Shown in pieces: positions 21,056-31,582 of a stretch of 32,000 nucleotides of DNA. The translations under genes and the position numbers were made by a program. Under the pieces are notes generated by a model. That model searched no databases. It worked only from the letters and a program-made list of their open reading frames with translations, and was not told the DNA's origin. The number at the start of each line of letters is the position of its first letter. Position 1 is the stretch's first letter. Origin of the DNA: Candidatus Arthromitus sp. SFB-rat-Yit. Its GTDB lineage: Bacteria > Bacillota > Clostridia > Clostridiales > Clostridiaceae. The stretch lies in assembly GCF_000283555.1 (NCBI RefSeq), contig NC_016012.1:330001-362000 (forward strand), in the 5' to 3' direction.

Positions 21056-22064
21056 TATTTTAATTAGATTTATATTTGTCATTGTGATTTCATTTATAGC
21101 TGTTACCTTAGGATTAATAATTGGAGGTGGAGCTGATAACTTAGAAAATATTTTTAGGATAATTTTACATAAATTGTTTGGTATGAATTTGAAAGAAAGT
21201 ATTTCACCAACAGAAGTTAGCATTATCTGGAATATAAGGTTTCCAAGAGTATTATTAGCTTTTATGGTTGGAGGAATGTTATCTGTTAGTGGAGTTATTA
21301 TTCAGTCTGTGCTTAGAAATCCATTAGCATCCTCCTATACTATGGGAATATCTTCAGGTGCTTCCCTAGGAATTGGAATTTTTACAGTAGGGAATATTTC
21401 ATTTTTAGGGTATGATACATCTCCGATAGTTGGGTTTGTTTTCTCGGTTTTAAGTATATTATTTGTTATAAGTTTATGTAGAAAATTTGATAAGAGTATG
21501 TCAAATAATACAATAGTACTTGTTGGTATGGTAATGTCTTTATTTTTAAACTCAATTTTTATTCTTATAACATCTATTAGGCATGAGAGTTTATCATCTA
21601 TAATTGTTTGGCAACTTGGATCATTTTCTTCAAGAGGATGGGAATATATTTTTTCAATTATTCCATGTTTAATTATAGGAGTAATTTTAGCGATATTTTA
21701 TAGTAAAGAGCTTGATATTATAACTTTTGGAGATGATATGAGTAAATCTGTTGGAGTAAACGTATCTAGAATAAAAATAGTCATGTTAATACTTGTTTCC
21801 ATATTAACTGGAGCGAGTATTGCAGCTAGTGGAGTTATAGGTTTTATTGATTTAATTGTTCCACATATATCGAGGAAATTATTTGGATCAAAGCATATTG
21901 TAGTTATATTATCTAGCTTATTTATTGGTGGGATTTTGATGGTGCTTTTTGATATTATATCTAGAACTATAATTTATCCGGCAGAAATTCCCATAGCTAC
22001 GATTAATGCACTAATAGGTACGCCTATATTTTGTTATATTTTCTTTAGGGAATATAGGAGGTAA
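21045..22064 (+). CDS. ABC transporter permease, FecCD/BtuC family
   Basis: 339 aa. It overlaps the upstream gene by 11 nt. Motifs RFPRVLLAFMVGGMLSVSG and LIVPHISRKL are typical of FecCD. Confidence 0.9.
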   Translation: MKSNILIRFIFVIVISFIAVTLGLIIGGGADNLENIFRIILHKLFGMNLKESISPTEVSIIWNIRFPRVLLAFMVGGMLSVSGVIIQSVLRNPLASSYTMGISSGASLGIGIFTVGNISFLGYDTSPIVGFVFSVLSILFVISLCRKFDKSMSNNTIVLVGMVMSLFLNSIFILITSIRHESLSSIIVWQLGSFSSRGWEYIFSIIPCLIIGVILAIFYSKELDIITFGDDMSKSVGVNVSRIKIVMLILVSILTGASIAASGVIGFIDLIVPHISRKLFGSKHIVVILSSLFIGGILMVLFDIISRTIIYPAEIPIATINALIGTPIFCYIFFREYRR

Positions 22065-22069
22065 TAAAA

Positions 22070-22825
22070 ATTTTAGAAGTTTCAAATTTAAGTTATTCTT
22101 ATGATAAAGATTTTAAAATATTAGATAATATTAGTTTTTCTCTTAAAAGTGGAGAACATTTGAGCATAATAGGATTAAATGGATGTGGTAAATCGACATT
22201 ATTAAAATGCATATGTAATTTTTTGAATTATGAAGGAAGTATAAAAATTAATGAGTTAGAAGTTAAAAAATTTAAAAATAGAGAGCTTTCAAAAAATGTT
22301 ACTATTTTATTCCAACAAACCGATATGTATTTTGATTATAAAGTTTTGGATGTTGTAAAGTTCGGGAGATATAGTAATTATAAAAAATGGAAATTTGTGC
22401 GAGAATATGATGAAGATTTAGACATCATATTAAAAAATATGGGAATATATCATTTGAAAAATAGATTTATGAGCGAGCTATCCGGCGGAGAGAAGCAGAG
22501 AGTTTTTATATCTAGGATTTTATACCAAGACCCATACATAATTTTATTAGATGAATTTAATAACAATATGGATTTGAAAACTCAAATTTATATTATAGAA
22601 AATTTTAAAGAAATTTTTAAAGACAAGATAATTTTATCAGTTTTTCATGATTTAAACATAGTAAGGAATTTAAATACTTTGGTAATGGTACTTAAAGATT
22701 GTAAAGTTTATAAATATGGAGATGTTGATAACATATTTAATAAAAATGTATTAAAGAGTGTATATGGAGTAGATGTTGAAAAATTTATGATAGACTCCCT
22801 TAATAAATGGAATAAAAATATATAG
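22070..22825 (+). CDS. ABC transporter ATP-binding protein (BtuD/FecE-like), probable non-canonical ATT start
   Basis: Walker A GLNGCGKST, Q-loop FQQTD, signature LSGGEKQRV, Walker B IILLDEF, H-loop FHDLN. The frame is open from 22058 and encodes the conserved ILEVSNLSYSY strand, but has no ATG/GTG/TTG before 22160. Confidence 0.75.
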   Translation: MLEVSNLSYSYDKDFKILDNISFSLKSGEHLSIIGLNGCGKSTLLKCICNFLNYEGSIKINELEVKKFKNRELSKNVTILFQQTDMYFDYKVLDVVKFGRYSNYKKWKFVREYDEDLDIILKNMGIYHLKNRFMSELSGGEKQRVFISRILYQDPYIILLDEFNNNMDLKTQIYIIENFKEIFKDKIILSVFHDLNIVRNLNTLVMVLKDCKVYKYGDVDNIFNKNVLKSVYGVDVEKFMIDSLNKWNKNI

Positions 22826-23615: not shown

Positions 23616-24317
23616 ATGAATACTCCTCATATTAACACTGGTGGGAATAAGATTGCAGAGAGTATATTATTACCTGGAGATCCGCTTAGATGTAAGTTTA
23701 TTGCAGAAAATTATTTGACTGATGTAGTACAATTTAATTCTGTAAGAAACATGCTTGGTTTTACAGGGAAGTATAAAGGTAAGGAAGTTTCAGTAATGGG
23801 GACAGGAATGGGAATGCCTAGTATAGGTATATATTCCTATGAACTTATAACTAAATTTGAAGTAAAGAATTTAATTAGAATTGGTAGTTGTGGAGCGATA
23901 CAAGAGAACTTAAAATTATATGATATAGTTATAGGGCAAGGAGCATCAACTAATTCAAATTTTGCATCTCAATATGGACTTCCAGGAACATTTGCACCTA
24001 TAGCATCTTATGAATTGTTATTTAAGGCTGTTGAATCTGCAAATAAGCTAGGTATCCATGTAAATATAGGGAATATACTTTCATCAGATATTTTTTATGA
24101 TGATAATAAAGATTCATATTTATTATGGAAAAAGATGGGAGTATTAGCTATTGAGATGGAAGCAGCAGCATTATATATGAATGCGGCAAGACTTGGAGCC
24201 AAAGCACTTTGTATATTAACAGTAAGTGATAGTATAGTAAATCATGAGGAAACTACAGCTGAAGAAAGGCAAACTGCATTTCATAAAATGATGGAGATTT
24301 CTTTAGATATGATATAG
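23616..24317 (+). CDS. deoD: Purine nucleoside phosphorylase, DeoD type
   Basis: 233 aa. Motifs TPHINTGGNKIAESILLPGDPLR, GTGMGMPS and LAIEMEAAALY. Confidence 0.92.
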   Translation: MNTPHINTGGNKIAESILLPGDPLRCKFIAENYLTDVVQFNSVRNMLGFTGKYKGKEVSVMGTGMGMPSIGIYSYELITKFEVKNLIRIGSCGAIQENLKLYDIVIGQGASTNSNFASQYGLPGTFAPIASYELLFKAVESANKLGIHVNIGNILSSDIFYDDNKDSYLLWKKMGVLAIEMEAAALYMNAARLGAKALCILTVSDSIVNHEETTAEERQTAFHKMMEISLDMI

Positions 24318-24356
24318 CATTTTGTTATCAATATTAAAATACATAAATATTTTTAT

Positions 24357-24390
24357 AGATCCCTATTTTTTAATAGAGGATCTGTTTTTT
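24357..24390 (+). terminator. Terminator after deoD
   Basis: Stem AGATCCCTATT / AATAG(A)GGATCT with a one-nt bulge, loop TTTT, then GTTTTTT. Confidence 0.7.
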
Positions 24391-24606
24391 ATATTTGTTA
24401 TAGCTAATATAAAATATAGTGTAATAACTGGTATGACAAAATATATTAAGGAAATGAGTAATCTGATTTTATCAATAACTTTATTTTTCAAATTATATAG
24501 ATGGTAATGAAATATATCATATTTTTAATTATATCTCAATAATAATTGATGTGTGCATTTTTATATAAAGAGAATATATAAGCAATAAATAGGAGCTAAA
24601 TAGTTA

Positions 24607-26967
24607 GTGTTATATTTATGTAGTTTAATAATTGCTAATATATATATATATATATTCTTATATATTTTTAGATTTAAAGTATTGGATTTTATAAAAAAGT
24701 TTATATTTAGATTAGTACCAGAATTATTTGTAGTAATTTATATAAGTTTTTTTATGATAAGTATAATTAATTCTAAAATAATTAATTCTTTAAGTAAAAC
24801 CCAAATATATAATGTTGCTAATCAAATAAATAATATATTCTTTCATAAATTTTATGATTTAACATTGTTTGATTTTATCGTAATATTATTATGTATTTAT
24901 TTAATTTTTATTATTATTATGACTTGTTTTAAAAAGGGTTATATAAATAAGCTTAGGTATTTGAAATGTACAATAGTGTATAAATATTTTACTGAAATAA
25001 AGGTTGTAGTTATAATATTCTATATTGTTTATCTTGTGCTATTATATATATCAAGAGAATATTTTATATATGATTTTAGTCATTATATGGGAATATTTAC
25101 GATATTTAATATATACTTTACTTTGGATTTATTTCTAATGATGATTGAGCTTGAGTTTTTGTTATTACCAGATTTATTTGAAAATAAAGTAAGCAAATTC
25201 AGTAAGAAAAGTTTTATTAAAGATGATAATTATATTATATATGATTTTAATATGATGTTTGACGAGAAGAAACATTTATTTGTAGAATTGTGTAATTATT
25301 TAAAATATTATCATAAAGAGCCATTAACTATATGTATAGATGGTGAATCAGGGGTTGGTAAAAGTACTTTTTCATGTGTATTGCAGAAAGAATTAAATAG
25401 GAATTATTACGTATTTAATATTAATAGTCTTATATTTACAGAGAATAATAAATTAAACGATTATTTTAATTATGTAATAGAAAATTTATTTAAGGCATAT
25501 GGGATATATAATTCTAAATCTCTGAAAAATTATATGAATATAATAAATTATGTCATGAATGATAAAGTGTCAAATTTGGTTAATTATTTTATGAACGATA
25601 AAATTCAAAAAAATTATTTTGAAATCAAAGATGAAATAAATAGCTGTATAGTTAAGATATTTGGAAATAAATCTAAATCAAAGATGAAAAAAGGAATTAT
25701 ATTTATAATAGATGATTTAGAGAGGATTTATAACGATTCTCAAATAGTAAATATATTAATTTTTTCCCAATATATATTGGGATTTGATTATATAAAATTT
25801 ATTTTAGTAACAAACTTAGAAATATTGAAAAATAAGATAGATAACCAGTATTTGGATATGTTTATACACAAAATATTTAAGATAGATAGTACAAGTACCA
25901 ATGATATATTATCCAAATATTTTGGAGAATTAAATAAAATTAAGATACATGATAATGATAATTTAGATATATCTGTTTGGTTAACACATTTATTTGATAT
26001 AGAATTTGATAAATATATTAAAGAGTTCGGAGTATATCTTTATAATAATGTGAATTTAGAATATTATATATTGAAAAAGAAATGGATAGAGTATAAGCGA
26101 ATATTATTAGAAGATTTGAAAAATAGAGGATTATTAGATAGTAATAATAACATTACATTTAATTTTAAGAATTCTGGATATGAAATGATAAGTGAATATT
26201 ATAATTATATATATATTAAAAAGTATTTTTTAGGTGATAATAGAGAGATAATTTTAGATAATATATATAATTTAATAAAAGATGAATGTATTAATATGAA
26301 TTTATACGATGACGAACAAGTTATAGCCATATGGATATATATGGAAAAAAATAATCAATTATCGAGTTTTCTTAAATTCAATATAAATCATTATCGAGTT
26401 TATAAAAATTTAACTTTATATAAAAATAATATGAATAAAGTAAATTATTTAATAGATTTGAAATTAGATAATAGTCCTAGAAATTTGAAAAGGCAAGTTT
26501 CATTTTTCTTATATAGTTTTGAAAAATTAGATAAGTATTTATGTGAATTTAAAGATAATAAAAATTTTTGTTATATTTTAGATATAGTTAACCAAAGAGA
26601 TTTTATATTATTTTTTATGGTAATATGTTTTTTTAGGGTATCGAATTTTATAGTTTATGATTCTTATGATAATAGCCGTAAATCTGATACTATAAATATT
26701 TTGAGTATATATAGATTTATTATATCAAATTATGAAATTCTTAAGGGGTATTCTGTAAAAGGTATTACATCATTTGTATATGATAATATAGATAAAATAG
26801 ATATAGATAAGTATATAAATTTAAAGGGGTTTGATAAAGATATAAATTATATATATTTATGTTTTTATATACAAACCTATATATATAAGAAATTAATATT
26901 AGAAGATGTTAATGAAGAGTGTTTTGAAATATTAGTTAAGTTTATATGTAATTTAATAAGTGTTTAA
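24607..26967 (+). CDS. Membrane-anchored KAP-like P-loop NTPase (about 5 N-terminal TM helices + NTPase + ~400-aa unknown C-terminal region)
   Basis: 786 aa, GTG start 12 nt after AGGAG. Hydrophobic helices span residues 1-190. Walker A is LTICIDGESGVGKSTF. Walker B with the KAP-type DDLxR motif is GIIFIIDDLERIY, followed by FILVTN. The protein is extremely I/N/K/Y/F rich. Confidence 0.6.
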   Translation: MLYLCSLIIANIYIYIFLYIFRFKVLDFIKKFIFRLVPELFVVIYISFFMISIINSKIINSLSKTQIYNVANQINNIFFHKFYDLTLFDFIVILLCIYLIFIIIMTCFKKGYINKLRYLKCTIVYKYFTEIKVVVIIFYIVYLVLLYISREYFIYDFSHYMGIFTIFNIYFTLDLFLMMIELEFLLLPDLFENKVSKFSKKSFIKDDNYIIYDFNMMFDEKKHLFVELCNYLKYYHKEPLTICIDGESGVGKSTFSCVLQKELNRNYYVFNINSLIFTENNKLNDYFNYVIENLFKAYGIYNSKSLKNYMNIINYVMNDKVSNLVNYFMNDKIQKNYFEIKDEINSCIVKIFGNKSKSKMKKGIIFIIDDLERIYNDSQIVNILIFSQYILGFDYIKFILVTNLEILKNKIDNQYLDMFIHKIFKIDSTSTNDILSKYFGELNKIKIHDNDNLDISVWLTHLFDIEFDKYIKEFGVYLYNNVNLEYYILKKKWIEYKRILLEDLKNRGLLDSNNNITFNFKNSGYEMISEYYNYIYIKKYFLGDNREIILDNIYNLIKDECINMNLYDDEQVIAIWIYMEKNNQLSSFLKFNINHYRVYKNLTLYKNNMNKVNYLIDLKLDNSPRNLKRQVSFFLYSFEKLDKYLCEFKDNKNFCYILDIVNQRDFILFFMVICFFRVSNFIVYDSYDNSRKSDTINILSIYRFIISNYEILKGYSVKGITSFVYDNIDKIDIDKYINLKGFDKDINYIYLCFYIQTYIYKKLILEDVNEECFEILVKFICNLISV
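24638..24655 (+). repeat. (AT)9 dinucleotide microsatellite inside codons 11-17 of the KAP-like gene
   Basis: Counted directly: atatatatatatatatat at 24638-24655. Confidence 0.95.
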
Positions 26968-26969
26968 AA

Positions 26970-27004
26970 ATAAGGTAACTATATAAATTAGTTACCTTAT
27001 TTAT
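26970..27004. terminator. Hairpin terminator after the KAP-like gene
   Basis: Perfect 11-bp stem ATAAGGTAACT / AGTTACCTTAT with a 9-nt loop. The downstream T-tract is weak (TTATATAT). An A-run lies upstream, so it could also act on the opposite strand. Confidence 0.6.
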
Positions 27005-27126: not shown

Positions 27127-27717
27127 GTGGGAGAAGTATTGATTATTATGGGACTTAATATTTTAGATAGGTTAATAGAATATGCTATAATAGATATTTT
27201 TGAGGATACTAAGCTTAAAATTTTGGGGTTTCCATATAAATGTAAGTTCGTGAAGAGAAGAGAGCAAGATAATTTTTACATAAAAGATGCAGTGCTTAAT
27301 TTTACTATGATGACTCAAAAAAATAAGATCATACATTTTGAATTTAAAAAAGAATATTTTTATAATGATATATATAAGTTTCTAGTATATTCATCATTTC
27401 TCATATATGAAAATAAGTATGATTATGAATTAGTTTTAGTTTACCCACAGAGATCTCGTAAAATAGTAAAAAATATGGCATTTACATCTCTAAGATTTTT
27501 TTATACAGATATGTATTTAGATTGTTTTAATGGAGATAAGATTTTAATGAAATTATCAGCTAAGGCGGCTAAAAAGAAGAAGTTTACTGATGAAGAGTAT
27601 TTGATACTTTCTCTTACTCCATATATGTATTCAAAGAGAGAGAAGATAACATTGATACTTGAAGGGCTAAGGTTAGCAAATGATTTGAATACAAAAAAAA
27701 ACATAGTGTTATTATAA
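27127..27717 (+). CDS. Rpn/YhgA-like PD-(D/E)XK nuclease, N-terminal (catalytic) portion
   Basis: 196 aa from GTG 27127 (or 189 aa from ATG 27148). KDAVLNF...(17 aa)...IIHFEFKKEY gives a D...ExK arrangement, like the xDxv...hiEfQ core of Rpn/putative-transposase nucleases. The gene ends just after an A9 run. Confidence 0.55.
   Translation: MGEVLIIMGLNILDRLIEYAIIDIFEDTKLKILGFPYKCKFVKRREQDNFYIKDAVLNFTMMTQKNKIIHFEFKKEYFYNDIYKFLVYSSFLIYENKYDYELVLVYPQRSRKIVKNMAFTSLRFFYTDMYLDCFNGDKILMKLSAKAAKKKKFTDEEYLILSLTPYMYSKREKITLILEGLRLANDLNTKKNIVLL
27693..27701 (+). repeat. A9 homopolymer at the junction of the two Rpn-like ORFs
   Basis: Counted directly. One extra A would fuse frame 1 (27127-) to the frame open from 27684 through 28007. 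Confidence 0.95.
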
Positions 27718-27758
27718 TAATTTTAATTTTAGCAGAAAGTTTTTTAGATGAGTCTGAT

Positions 27759-28007
27759 ATGTATAAGGTGAAGAAGGAGATAAAGATGTATAAGATTGGG
27801 AAGATGATATTTGAAGAGGGAATGAAGAGTGCATCTAATGATGTTGAGAGGGAAATTTCTGGTAGAATGATACGAAAAGGTAAGAATCAAGCTAAGGTAG
27901 AACTTGCTGTTGAAATGATGAAAAATAAAGAAGAATTGAATAAAATTATTAAATATACTGGATTTACTAAGAAAGAACTTGAAAAAATTTACTATACATT
28001 TAAATAA
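27759..28007 (+). CDS. Rpn-like C-terminal domain as a separate small ORF (82 aa; 73 aa if started at ATG 27786)
   Basis: IFEEGMKSASNDVERE...KGKNQAKVELAVEMMKNKEELNKIIKYTGFTKKELEKI resembles the EEG..G....iA..ll..g.s.e.Ia..tGLs.eEie tail of Rpn-family proteins. AAGGAG (27774-27779) lies 6 nt before ATG 27786. Confidence 0.55.
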   Translation: MYKVKKEIKMYKIGKMIFEEGMKSASNDVEREISGRMIRKGKNQAKVELAVEMMKNKEELNKIIKYTGFTKKELEKIYYTFK

Positions 28008-28040
28008 TAACTTGGAATGCTTATTCCAAGTTATTTTTTA
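28007..28040 (+). terminator. Terminator after the Rpn-like locus
   Basis: Perfect 12-bp stem ATAACTTGGAAT / ATTCCAAGTTAT, loop GCTT, then TTTTT. Confidence 0.85.
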
Positions 28041-30128: not shown

Positions 30129-30863
30129 ATGAAAACTTTTATGAGATATGAGAAGAAGTATATGTTAACTGAAGAAAAATATTTGAGGTTAATGGATGTT
30201 TTTAAGGATAAGATGGAAGATGATATTTTCCCAAGATCTAGTATATGTAATATATATTTTGATACTTCAAATTTTCAACTTATAAGGAATTCTTTAGATA
30301 AACCTGTATATAAAGAAAAATTGAGAATGAGAAGTTATGGAGTTCCAAATAAAAATTCGTTTGTGTTTGTAGAACTTAAGAAAAAATATGATGGTGTTGT
30401 TTATAAAAGACGTGAAAAAATGCACATATGTGATGCGGAAAATTATCTTTATTTTAATAATTATCCGAAAAATGACACTCAGGTAATTAGAGAAATAGAT
30501 TGGATGATGAATCATTATAAAAATGTAATACCTAGTATGTATATTTCTTATGATAGAATTGCCATGCGTGGGATTTATGATAACGATTTAAGGATAACTT
30601 TTGATAAAAATATTTTGTATAGAGATTATAATCTTGACCTTAAGAGTGGTATATGGGGAGACAGAGTTATTAGAGAAGATGAATATTTAATGGAGATAAA
30701 GATTAGTGGAGGAATGCCTTTTTGGCTTTGTAGGATTTTAACGGATTTGAGTATTTATCCTACATCTTTTTCTAAGTATGGAGTTGCTTATCAAATTAAT
30801 AAAGGATATAGAGAATGTATTTGTAAAGATCTTTCATGTGGTAGTAGAGAATTTGCTTGTTAA
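30129..30863 (+). CDS. VTC-domain protein (polyphosphate-polymerase-like triphosphate tunnel enzyme)
   Basis: 244 aa. RYEKKY, NIYFDT, KEKLRMRSYG and VFVELKKKYDGVVYKRR match the bacterial VTC (Vtc4 catalytic-domain-like) pattern. The C-terminal tail is Cys-rich (CICKDLSCGSREFAC). Confidence 0.8.
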   Translation: MKTFMRYEKKYMLTEEKYLRLMDVFKDKMEDDIFPRSSICNIYFDTSNFQLIRNSLDKPVYKEKLRMRSYGVPNKNSFVFVELKKKYDGVVYKRREKMHICDAENYLYFNNYPKNDTQVIREIDWMMNHYKNVIPSMYISYDRIAMRGIYDNDLRITFDKNILYRDYNLDLKSGIWGDRVIREDEYLMEIKISGGMPFWLCRILTDLSIYPTSFSKYGVAYQINKGYRECICKDLSCGSREFAC

Positions 30864-30892
30864 AAAATTTAGTTTGGGGGAGTGTGTTTAAA

Positions 30893-31582
30893 ATGTTTAA
30901 TTGGGTTTTTGATTCTATTTTAATTGAAAATGCATCGTCTAATATTTTGGGTAAAAATATTTTAATTTGTATGAGTGTATCGATTATTCTTGGATTTTGT
31001 ATTGCTTATATATATATGTTTAGGAATGTTTATTCAAAAGGTTTTATAGTTACACTTACGCTTATGCCAGCGGTTGTTCAATTAGTTATTATGCTTGTTA
31101 ATGGTAATTTGGGTGCTGGTGTTGCTGTTACTGGAGCATTTTCACTGGTAAGATTTAGATCAGCACCTGGGAGTGCAAAGGAAATAATTAGTATATTTAT
31201 AGCAATGGCAGTTGGGCTTTCAACCGGTATGGGATATATTGGGATAGCAGTTTTATTTGTTATTATTATGGGGGCTTTAAATATTTTATTAAATGCTACA
31301 AAATTTGGTGAGGGTCCCCCACGCCAAAAGACACTTAAGATAACTATACCAGAGTCATTTGATTATACAAATGTATTTAATGATATATTTGATAAATATT
31401 TAAAGAGTTGGGAAATTTATCAGGTTAGAAGTATGAACATGGGTAGTTTATTTAAGATAGAGTATAAGATAGTTATAAAAAATTCTATAAATGAAAAAGA
31501 AATGATTGATGATATTAGATGTAGAAATGGAAATTTAGAAATTATAATTGGTAAAAATTTACCTTCTAGAGAGGAGCTGTAA
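30893..31582 (+). CDS. DUF4956-family membrane protein
   Basis: ATG 30893 is preferred, though the frame is open from TTG 30857, which overlaps the VTC stop. It has 4 TM helices. GAFSLVRFRSAPGSAKEIISIFIAMAVGLSTGMGY is the DUF4956 core. A soluble C-terminal domain follows. Confidence 0.8.
   Translation: MFNWVFDSILIENASSNILGKNILICMSVSIILGFCIAYIYMFRNVYSKGFIVTLTLMPAVVQLVIMLVNGNLGAGVAVTGAFSLVRFRSAPGSAKEIISIFIAMAVGLSTGMGYIGIAVLFVIIMGALNILLNATKFGEGPPRQKTLKITIPESFDYTNVFNDIFDKYLKSWEIYQVRSMNMGSLFKIEYKIVIKNSINEKEMIDDIRCRNGNLEIIIGKNLPSREEL

Follow-up and report, generated by a model that had tools for sequence, protein, structure and literature searches.

A KAP-family P-loop NTPase with a predicted N-terminal membrane module in Candidatus Arthromitus sp. 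SFB-rat-Yit

Background

The KAP family of P-loop NTPases was reportedly described by Aravind, Iyer, Leipe and Koonin in Genome Biol in 2004, and eukaryotic and some bacterial members are said to carry transmembrane (TM) helices inserted in the NTPase domain. Here, we analyzed a stretch of 32,000 nucleotides of Candidatus Arthromitus sp. SFB-rat-Yit, a segmented filamentous bacterium (SFB), which covers positions 330,001 to 362,000 of contig NC_016012.1 (hereafter the window) and encodes, at 24607..26967 on the + strand, a KAP protein of 786 amino acids (aa) with its predicted TM helices ahead of the NTPase domain. A first reading of the window, made without database searches (hereafter the sequence-only reading), had taken inserted TM helices to be canonical for KAP proteins; this holds for eukaryotic and some bacterial members but does not define the family, and many bacterial KAP proteins have no TM helices.

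EF_KAP and 3 KAP NTPases from gut metagenomes protect against phages (PLoS Biol 2026, PMC13552941). Both the Walker B motif and the C-terminal region of EF_KAP are indispensable for defense, the protein is modeled with 1 N-terminal TM helix and 1 inside the KAP domain followed by 322 aa of unknown function, and its gene lies on mobile DNA, adjacent to a small serine recombinase (PMC13552941). PifA, which mediates the exclusion of T7 by the F plasmid, has no TM helices, and it causes membrane depolarization and nucleotide leakage (PMC13001434). Tmn is a TM P-loop NTPase of the separate YobI family that exports Mg2+ on sensing a phage protein and forms a decameric membrane hub in which ATP turnover is coupled to this export (PMC13001434).

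The SFB protein fits the architecture of the antiphage KAP proteins, with a KAP domain, TM helices, and an uncharacterized C-terminal region, as judged from Pfam and hydropathy. Its core resembles the KAP family (PF07693) in having a Walker A motif, a Walker B motif of the form hhhhDDxER, a polar-ended strand, a putative YLxxFI motif, and possibly the NxRxxKR helix. Whereas eukaryotic members and some bacterial ones have TM helices within the NTPase domain, the 5 helices of the SFB protein lie ahead of it, with none between the Walker motifs. The protein therefore lacks the 2 or 4 inserted TM helices, a feature that is not required for membership in the family because PifA has no TM helices (PMC13001434). 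Further differences are the loss of the Walker A Trp and of the YLEKF Lys in the SFB clade and ~100 extra residues between the core and an NPR-like helix.

Compared by description, EF_KAP and the SFB protein share the combination of TM helices, a KAP domain, and an uncharacterized C-terminal region, which in the SFB protein comprises ~320 residues after the Pfam match; EF_KAP, however, has 2 TM helices, 1 of them in-domain, in contrast to 5, all N-terminal, in the SFB protein. PifA is alike as a KAP NTPase tied to a membrane-level outcome, but it has no TM helices, and the SFB protein has no match to the PADLOC PifA model. Tmn likewise combines membrane helices, a P-loop NTPase, and a helical tail (the sensor in Tmn) in a single protein; it differs in belonging to another P-loop family and in having 2 helices inserted after Walker A. 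By analogy, Tmn may be a useful working model of an NTPase driving a membrane effect.

Results

KAP family assignment of the NTPase core

The gene is a single open reading frame (ORF) located exactly where the sequence-only reading had placed it, and its product is 100% identical to the NCBI protein named "P-loop NTPase fold protein" of Candidatus Arthromitus sp. SFB-rat-Yit. The GTG start codon lies directly 3' of an in-frame TAG. At the local base composition (A 41%, T 41%, G 13%, and C 5%), 11% of codons should be stops, so that neither the whole frame (chance of 786 open codons ~1e-41) nor its first 190 codons alone (~1e-10) can be put down to chance. The gene and its start are as follows:

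24607..26967, + strand: whole coding sequence, KAP-family P-loop NTPase with N-terminal membrane module, 786 aa (ORF, Pfam, and database identity)
24591..24595, + strand: AGGAG, resembling a ribosome-binding site, 11 nt upstream of the GTG start (read from the sequence)

The Pfam family KAP_NTPase scored above its cut-off, and all other P-loop families (AAA_18, AAA, NACHT, AAA_16, and others) scored under their own cut-offs, so that the P-loop domain does not fall into another clade. Membership in the STAND NTPases was rejected (NACHT 13.6 bits vs. a cut-off of 26.7; AAA_16 12.0 vs. 32.6), as was membership in AAA+ proper, with the AAA families below their Pfam cut-offs, and in the YobI/Tmn group, with no TM helix after Walker A and no YobI-type family among the Pfam and PADLOC matches. 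In an hhalign comparison, the SFB family matched 14 distant relatives with 99.7% probability (E 1e-25) over aa 210-446; 9 of these 14 belong to the 10 non-SFB relatives tested with Pfam, every one of which passes KAP_NTPase (1e-14 to 1e-38). The KAP-like identity proposed in the sequence-only reading is thus supported by both the Pfam match above cut-off and the profile-profile match to KAP relatives. The features of the core are as follows:

25288..26004, + strand: Pfam KAP_NTPase match, aa 228-466, equal to profile positions 8-269 of 293; E 4.9e-11, 42.9 bits (cut-off 20)
25342..25368, + strand: Walker A, GESGVGKST, aa 246-254; G249, G251, and K252 invariant in 25 sequences
25696..25725, + strand: Walker B, IIFIIDDLER, aa 364-373; D369 and R373 invariant and D370 at least 90% conserved in 25 sequences
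25792..25815, + strand: strand following Walker B, IKFILVTN, aa 396-403; its polar end is sensor-1-like, and xIFLxDY of distant KAP proteins aligns with it; AlphaFold2 (AF2) strand at 396-402
25849..25872, + strand: YLDMFIHK, aa 415-422, candidate counterpart of the KAP motif YLEKFIxK with Lys replaced by Met418 (alignment A2, columns 601-620)

Judged by these motifs, the residues for nucleotide binding and hydrolysis appear intact. Walker B occupies precisely the residues assigned to it in the sequence-only reading, while the correctly named Walker A motif lies 2 residues before the position given there (aa 248-256). That reading had also proposed a KAP-type DDLDR motif followed by a sensor strand, and IIFIIDDLER and IKFILVTN (with FILVTN at aa 398-403) do match the positions of VDDxDR and IFLxDY in relatives that pass KAP_NTPase. 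The 109 residues between Walker A and Walker B are hydrophilic, with a top 19-residue Kyte-Doolittle mean of 0.19, and AF2 places only soluble helices there, in agreement with the earlier view that no TM helix interrupts the core. The Walker A of all SFB orthologues lacks the Trp of the usual KAP GxWGxGKTS, and the YLEK Lys, present in 19 of 19 distant relatives, is Met in the SFB sequences.

The first of 2 AF2 models, built from 13 sequences, was too weak, with a predicted local distance difference test (pLDDT) score of 55.9; the second, built from 25 sequences, was confident solely for the NTPase core (pLDDT 80-90, aa 210-440) and for aa 480-610 (~80). With the modeled core, Foldseek returned ORC/Cdc6, DnaA, clamp-loader subunits, and the RADAR ATPase RdrA as the closest solved folds (E 3e-4 to 1e-3), which is what a KAP/AAA+-like ASCE core would be expected to give. 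Sequence searches of the PDB with the SFB profile and with the distant-relative profile gave nothing useful.

An orthologue from an NCBI assembly (P0003), 87% identical, carries an in-frame deletion of ~60 aa right after Walker B (alignment A1, columns 404-464), which removes the sensor-like strand and the YLxMFI motif and represents either an inactivated allele or an assembly artefact.

N-terminal membrane module

The call of TM helices rests on hydropathy with a threshold of 1.6 on the 19-residue Kyte-Doolittle mean (KD19), on AF2 helices that coincide in position, and on the positive-inside rule. Within aa 1-187, 5 windows exceed the threshold, with peaks of 2.09, 2.37, 3.18, 2.58, and 1.86, and both AF2 models have long helices at the positions of these segments. 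When the whole protein was shuffled 2,000 times, 5 such segments never occurred within the first 190 residues (mean 0.9, maximum 4), so the AT-driven composition rich in Ile, Phe, Leu, and Tyr does not by itself explain the helices. In 13 orthologues, loops rich in Lys and Arg (K/R; aa 22-35 and 109-132) alternate with K/R-poor loops (aa 57-89 and 150-160). Because of this alternation, the positive-inside rule predicts an N-terminus outside, 5 helices, and a cytoplasmic NTPase, and the charge pattern fits such an N-out/C-in topology. The claim of about 5 hydrophobic helices before the NTPase therefore stands on the KD19 segments, the AF2 helices, the shuffle test, and the conserved charge pattern, and aa 1-187 behaves as 5 TM helices. 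The predicted parts are as follows:

24610..24669, + strand: TM1, aa 2-21, predicted out-to-in; KD19 peak 2.09; AF2 helix 2-20; K/R-free in all orthologues
24670..24711, + strand: loop 1, aa 22-35, predicted cytoplasmic; mean of 4.8 K/R and 0.4 Asp or Glu (D/E) in 14 residues (13 orthologues)
24712..24774, + strand: TM2, aa 36-56; P38-E39, at the end facing the cytoplasm, is invariant; KD19 peak 2.37
24775..24873, + strand: loop 2, aa 57-89, predicted extracytoplasmic; 3.2 K/R in 33 residues; 30% invariant columns; short AF2 helix 64-79
24874..24930, + strand: TM3, aa 90-108, highest in hydrophobicity and lowest in conservation among the helices; KD19 peak 3.18; 11% invariant columns
24931..25002, + strand: loop 3, aa 109-132, predicted cytoplasmic; mean of 5.8 K/R and 1.3 D/E in 24 residues
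25003..25053, + strand: TM4, aa 133-149; KD19 peak 2.58
25054..25086, + strand: loop 4, aa 150-160 (REYFIYDFSHY), predicted to be extracytoplasmic; more invariant columns (55%) than any other part of the membrane module
25087..25167, + strand: TM5, aa 161-187, ending in invariant E181-L182-E183 at the cytoplasmic interface; KD19 peak 1.86; AF2 helix 157-197
25168..25287, + strand: juxtamembrane linker, aa 188-227, into the first KAP-domain helix; 50% invariant columns

The linker is as conserved as the NTPase core, and its MMF(D/E)EKK aligns with the LFxSRK motif of distant KAP proteins. Every part of the protein is under purifying selection, and the ratio of nonsynonymous to synonymous polymorphism (pN/pS) for aa 2-190, 0.37-0.46 in 5 genome comparisons, is similar to that of the rest of the gene. 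The frame is open through the N-terminus in all 13 orthologues, and every complete N-terminus begins with MLY; because these features, the pN/pS, and the charge pattern are all conserved, the membrane module is part of the protein. No homologue of the TM region was detected outside SFB by Pfam or by hhalign against the distant relatives (E 0.18). The AF2 packing of the TM bundle and the AF2 fold of the C-terminus were not used for any conclusion.

Regions following the core

The sequence-only reading had described some 400 residues without a motif after the core. This held for the C-terminal region, which has no Pfam match, but the KAP match extends to aa 466, and the segment NSPRNLKRQ resembles a KAP motif. 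We divided the remainder as follows:

25945..26466, + strand: middle region, aa 447-620, fastest-evolving part and candidate sensor; identity 45-52%, pN/pS 0.42-0.56; AF2 pLDDT ~80 for aa 480-610
26470..26496, + strand: NSPRNLKRQ, aa 622-630, candidate KAP NxRxxK[KR] helix, within aa 621-646
26545..26964, + strand: C-terminal region, aa 647-786, predominantly helical in the AF2 models

The middle region had the highest pN/pS of 4 regions in 4 of the 5 genome comparisons and is ~100 aa longer than the matching stretch, from the core to the NPR-like helix, of distant KAP proteins; it may serve as the sensor. Directly after it, aa 621-646 form the best-conserved segment of the protein, with 62% invariant columns. 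Here, hhalign pairs NSPRNLKRQ with NxRKLKR of the relatives, with an E value of 0.007 and a probability of 5.6%, and because this pairing is weak, the equation of NSPRNLKRQ with NxRxxK[KR] stays suggestive. The N-terminus, the C-terminus, and the NPR-like segment each gave no Pfam match when searched in isolation. For the C-terminal region alone, there was no match outside SFB among 1.84 billion representative proteins, and no recognizable enzymatic motif was found in it.

Distant KAP proteins with the same order of parts

We searched the 1.84 billion representatives with a profile and obtained 33 matches at E <= 1e-3, approximately 20 of which have 2-6 hydrophobic segments (mostly 3-5) in the first 140-230 residues. 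In these relatives, Walker A lies at aa 177-270 and Walker B ~110-120 residues further on, with nothing hydrophobic between them and a long helical tail thereafter. A second, word-index search (alignment A2) added 5 more such KAP proteins, including a Paenibacillus "KAP family NTPase". The N-terminal-TM layout is thus not unique to SFB, with ~25 distant Bacillota KAP proteins sharing the order of parts; the "distinct architectural variant" of the sequence-only reading is real as a layout but not confined to this protein. These N-terminal-TM Bacillota proteins are the nearest relatives of the SFB core among the representatives, and they match the PADLOC PifA model (1e-8 to 1e-39). Examples are WP_179886620.1 of Bacillus sp. 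es.034 (P0017), the Paenibacillus sp. MER TA 81-3 "KAP family NTPase" (P0060), WP_301863050.1 of Priestia aryabhattai plasmid p1, and the gut-metagenome proteins P0015-P0042. We found no description of an N-terminal-TM KAP subgroup in the literature.

The relatives are nevertheless remote from the SFB protein. Identity in the core is only 13-19% overall, and the TM and C-terminal regions are not detectably homologous; the relatives are mostly 900-1050 aa long and keep the canonical KAP residues, whereas the SFB protein has 786 aa and lacks the Trp and Lys. The earlier notion that the TM module had been "relocated" to the N-terminus finds no demonstration, because homology between SFB and the relatives is detectable in the NTPase core only (TM regions, hhalign E 0.18), and an independent N-terminal fusion is at least as plausible, because PifA, like many bacterial KAP proteins, has no TM helices.

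The survey of homologues and their gene neighbors proposed in the sequence-only reading thus recovered the same N-terminal TM arrangement and placed several relatives in defense or mobile regions. The Bacillus sp. es.034 gene is flanked by PglZ, SNF2, HNH, and PLD-DEAD-DUF3427 genes on one side and by T5orf172 and 3 IS21 copies on the other. A gut-metagenome relative adjoins an AAA_15/AAA_21 gene pair, a reverse transcriptase, HipA, and an integrase fragment, the Paenibacillus relative adjoins Imm63 and SUKH immunity genes, and 1 full-length relative lies on a mobilizable Priestia plasmid. The neighbors of 2 other relatives were uninformative, and 1 further contig was too short. These relatives are accessory genes in defense or mobile regions, in contrast to the SFB gene, which is a syntenic core gene.

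The es.034 locus (L012, 1-22778) is a dense defense island that also contains NUDIX and T5orf172/MUG113 genes.

The SFB locus and its neighboring genes

The order PNP, KAP, a 286-aa gene, response regulator, histidine kinase, VTC, and DUF4956 is identical in the window and in 2 loci with called genes, and the 286-aa gene also follows the KAP gene in 3 further SFB-lineage genomes, which were obtained by an SFB-only alignment scan of the genome collection. KAP orthologues occur in rat, mouse, and bird SFB lineages, with 55-63% identity between loci. No mention of the SFB locus tags was found in the literature. Features around the gene are as follows:

24355..24393, + strand: hairpin with U-run after the upstream PNP gene; -18.5 kcal/mol, z -4.6, 0 of 200 shuffles as good
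27127..28007, + strand: 286-aa SFB-specific downstream gene, split here into ORFs of 196 aa and 82 aa; adjacent and intact in 5 other SFB-lineage loci
28006..28035, + strand: terminator-like hairpin after the split 286-aa gene; 13-pair stem, then T-run

The 2 terminator-like hairpins with U/T-runs bracket the KAP gene and the split 286-aa gene. The upstream one, judged from its sequence, is likely a terminator that makes the KAP gene the start of a new transcription unit. The terminator scan of the window found no terminator-like site between the KAP gene and the 286-aa gene, so the 2 genes may be co-transcribed. A promoter scan was uninformative in this AT-rich DNA (52 sites found vs. 55.7 expected).

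The 286-aa gene was found only in SFB, and its product is 76-84% identical between loci, that is, more conserved than the KAP protein. None of 5 orthologues had a Pfam match, and there was no nuclease among them; of 2 orthologues scanned for TIGR01784, the Rpn family model, 1 matched its C-terminus below the cut-off (E 4e-4) and the other did not. The gene is possibly a partner of KAP or a co-transcribed gene. Its split in SFB-rat-Yit is located at an A9 run (27693-27701) with a length difference of 1 nt, a break that may stem from a sequencing error, mark a pseudogene, or reflect phase variation.

Several observations concern the annotation and surroundings of the locus. The consensus terminator scan overlooked the 24355-24393 hairpin owing to a bulge. 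The G+C content is 18-21% across the KAP gene (24001-27000) vs. 25-30% in the flanking housekeeping genes, which could reflect an old foreign origin or merely a protein composition rich in Asn, Lys, Ile, and Tyr. Gene models for the mouse-SFB orthologue differ in length (787, 738, 627, and 615 aa; P0061-P0066), and the short ones, which start at an internal Met and lack most of the membrane module, need correction; some partial mouse-SFB entries are named "PAS sensor protein" or "transcriptional regulator", neither of which is supported by anything here. In an ABC-transporter ATPase gene at 22040-22825, a conserved N-terminal stretch of ~30 residues (EVIKILEVSNLSYSY...) lies upstream of the first ATG, GTG, or TTG and directly after a stop, while the listed ORF (22160-22825, TTG start) begins just before Walker A; the start may have been lost or may be non-canonical, and the orthologue in L002 is also truncated, at 130 aa. 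A VTC-domain gene and a DUF4956 membrane protein gene (30129-31582) follow the two-component system as a conserved cluster, which may be a polyphosphate-related module and which, in the other SFB loci (L001 and L002), also contains a Cthe_2159-family gene.

Discussion

Our preferred but tentative reading, held with somewhat less than even confidence, is that the protein is an integral-membrane KAP NTPase acting as a defense-type, PifA/Tmn-like, single-protein conflict module. The 5 N-terminal helices (N-out, C-in) would hold the cytoplasmic KAP core against the inner face of the membrane, with the lineage-specific helical region following it. The variable cytoplasmic region (aa 447-620 together with the C-terminus) would recognize a trigger, and nucleotide binding or hydrolysis at Walker A and Walker B would then switch or oligomerize the protein. 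This change could be relayed via the conserved juxtamembrane linker to the 5-helix bundle, which would alter membrane integrity or ion balance, or control a membrane partner. We infer this division into sensor, switch, and effector from the defense contexts of the relatives, from the membrane effects of PifA and Tmn, and from the requirement of EF_KAP for its Walker B motif and C-terminal region.

Several results weigh against a role in defense. The SFB gene is a syntenic core gene flanked by housekeeping genes, and its constant position in the SFB-lineage genomes examined and its presence in rat, mouse, and bird SFB are unlike those of a typical defense gene; EF_KAP lies on mobile DNA, whereas the SFB gene lies between PNP and a two-component system, away from any mobile or defense-island location. 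Divergence of the KAP protein (55-63% identity) is no faster than that of its neighbors (47-78%), and with pN/pS below 0.6 everywhere, we rejected the idea of a fast-evolving arms-race gene. The PADLOC PifA model (PDLC02361) was absent from the matches of the SFB protein at E up to 10, and no defense model was found beyond a P-loop-only match. Our scan found no relatives in viral contigs, and homology of the TM and C-terminal regions to the defense-island relatives was not demonstrable with hhalign. Further, the nucleotide cycle of the SFB protein may differ, because the Walker A Trp and the YLEKF Lys are lost.

These results bear on the main alternative, a serious rival although we consider it rather unlikely, in which an ancestral KAP NTPase became fixed in the SFB lineage and the gene now encodes a domesticated housekeeping protein, working at the membrane as an NTP-dependent scaffold or regulator. 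It would serve a process peculiar to SFB, for instance filament segmentation, the formation of intracellular offspring, holdfast formation, or envelope assembly, and may act with the 286-aa protein or downstream of the neighboring two-component system. Retention as a core syntenic gene in a genome of ~1.5 Mb across rat, mouse, and bird SFB speaks for such a protein, as do the purifying selection on all parts, the good conservation of the predicted extracytoplasmic loops (loop 4 in particular), and the replacement of family-typical residues, which suggests a changed function. The gene is also always the neighbor of the more conserved 286-aa gene, which is confined to SFB, and the scan found no terminator-like site separating the 2; the animal KAP protein Kidins220 serves as a membrane scaffold and not in defense (PMC11408833). 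However, a housekeeping function is not known for any KAP protein of bacteria, the relatives that share the layout belong to the accessory genes of defense or mobile regions, and conservation within 1 genus does not exclude defense. The 286-aa neighbor is, moreover, frameshifted in SFB-rat-Yit, so that, unless this is a sequencing error, the pair is not strictly required.

In a second alternative, which we regard as distinctly improbable, the TM bundle is only an anchor; the protein would then be a membrane-tethered sensor NTPase, with either its own C-terminal region or the 286-aa neighbor, which may be a highly divergent Rpn-like protein, as the effector. In EF_KAP, deletion of the C-terminus abolishes defense, and protection holds at high multiplicity of infection and is not abortive (PMC13552941). 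The poor conservation of TM3 is what a simple anchor helix would show, and the weak TIGR01784 match of 1 orthologue points the same way. Yet 5 helices with conserved loops and interface residues (P38-E39, E181-L-E183, and SREYFIY) exceed the needs of a tether, the Rpn-like match is under the cut-off and absent in the other orthologue scanned, and neither a Pfam nuclease match in the 5 orthologues of the 286-aa protein nor a recognizable enzymatic motif in the KAP C-terminus supplies an effector.

That the hydrophobic N-terminus is untranslated, with a start at an internal Met and an AT-rich leader open by chance, is extremely unlikely and effectively refuted: the short mouse-orthologue models and the many Ile, Phe, Leu, and Tyr codons of AT-rich DNA would suit it, but the frame is open from a stop at 24601-24603 with AGGAG close upstream and in all orthologues with the conserved MLY start, 190 codons would hardly stay open by chance, and the region shares the pN/pS of the rest of the gene and a conserved alternating charge pattern.

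Beyond the tentative reading of a defense-type membrane KAP NTPase, a bolder version is improbable in our view, in which a defense-type KAP protein was captured and fixed early in SFB together with its 286-aa neighbor and rewired into an NTP-gated 5-helix membrane device. The rewiring would comprise the loss of the Trp and the YLEK Lys, the gain of the ~100-aa middle insert, and the conservation of the extracytoplasmic loops, and the device would be either a Tmn-independent ion-conducting or permeabilizing effector or an outside-in signaling unit for the multicellular life cycle of the filament.

The KAP family is already known, as are the protein itself, held in databases under a generic name, and, since 2026, TM-bearing antiphage KAP proteins with uncharacterized C-termini. 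What is new here is the combination of 5 predicted N-terminal helices, an uninterrupted core, and a lineage-specific insert, along with its fixation as an SFB core gene. An antiphage role of KAP proteins has been shown experimentally only recently, and an N-terminal multi-helix bundle joined to an uninterrupted core offers a clean system for distinguishing a nucleotide switch that drives a membrane effector, as in Tmn and PifA, from one that is merely tethered. For the biology of SFB, the KAP protein is one of the few large, lineage-specific, and universally retained membrane proteins in the reduced genome of an immunologically important gut symbiont.

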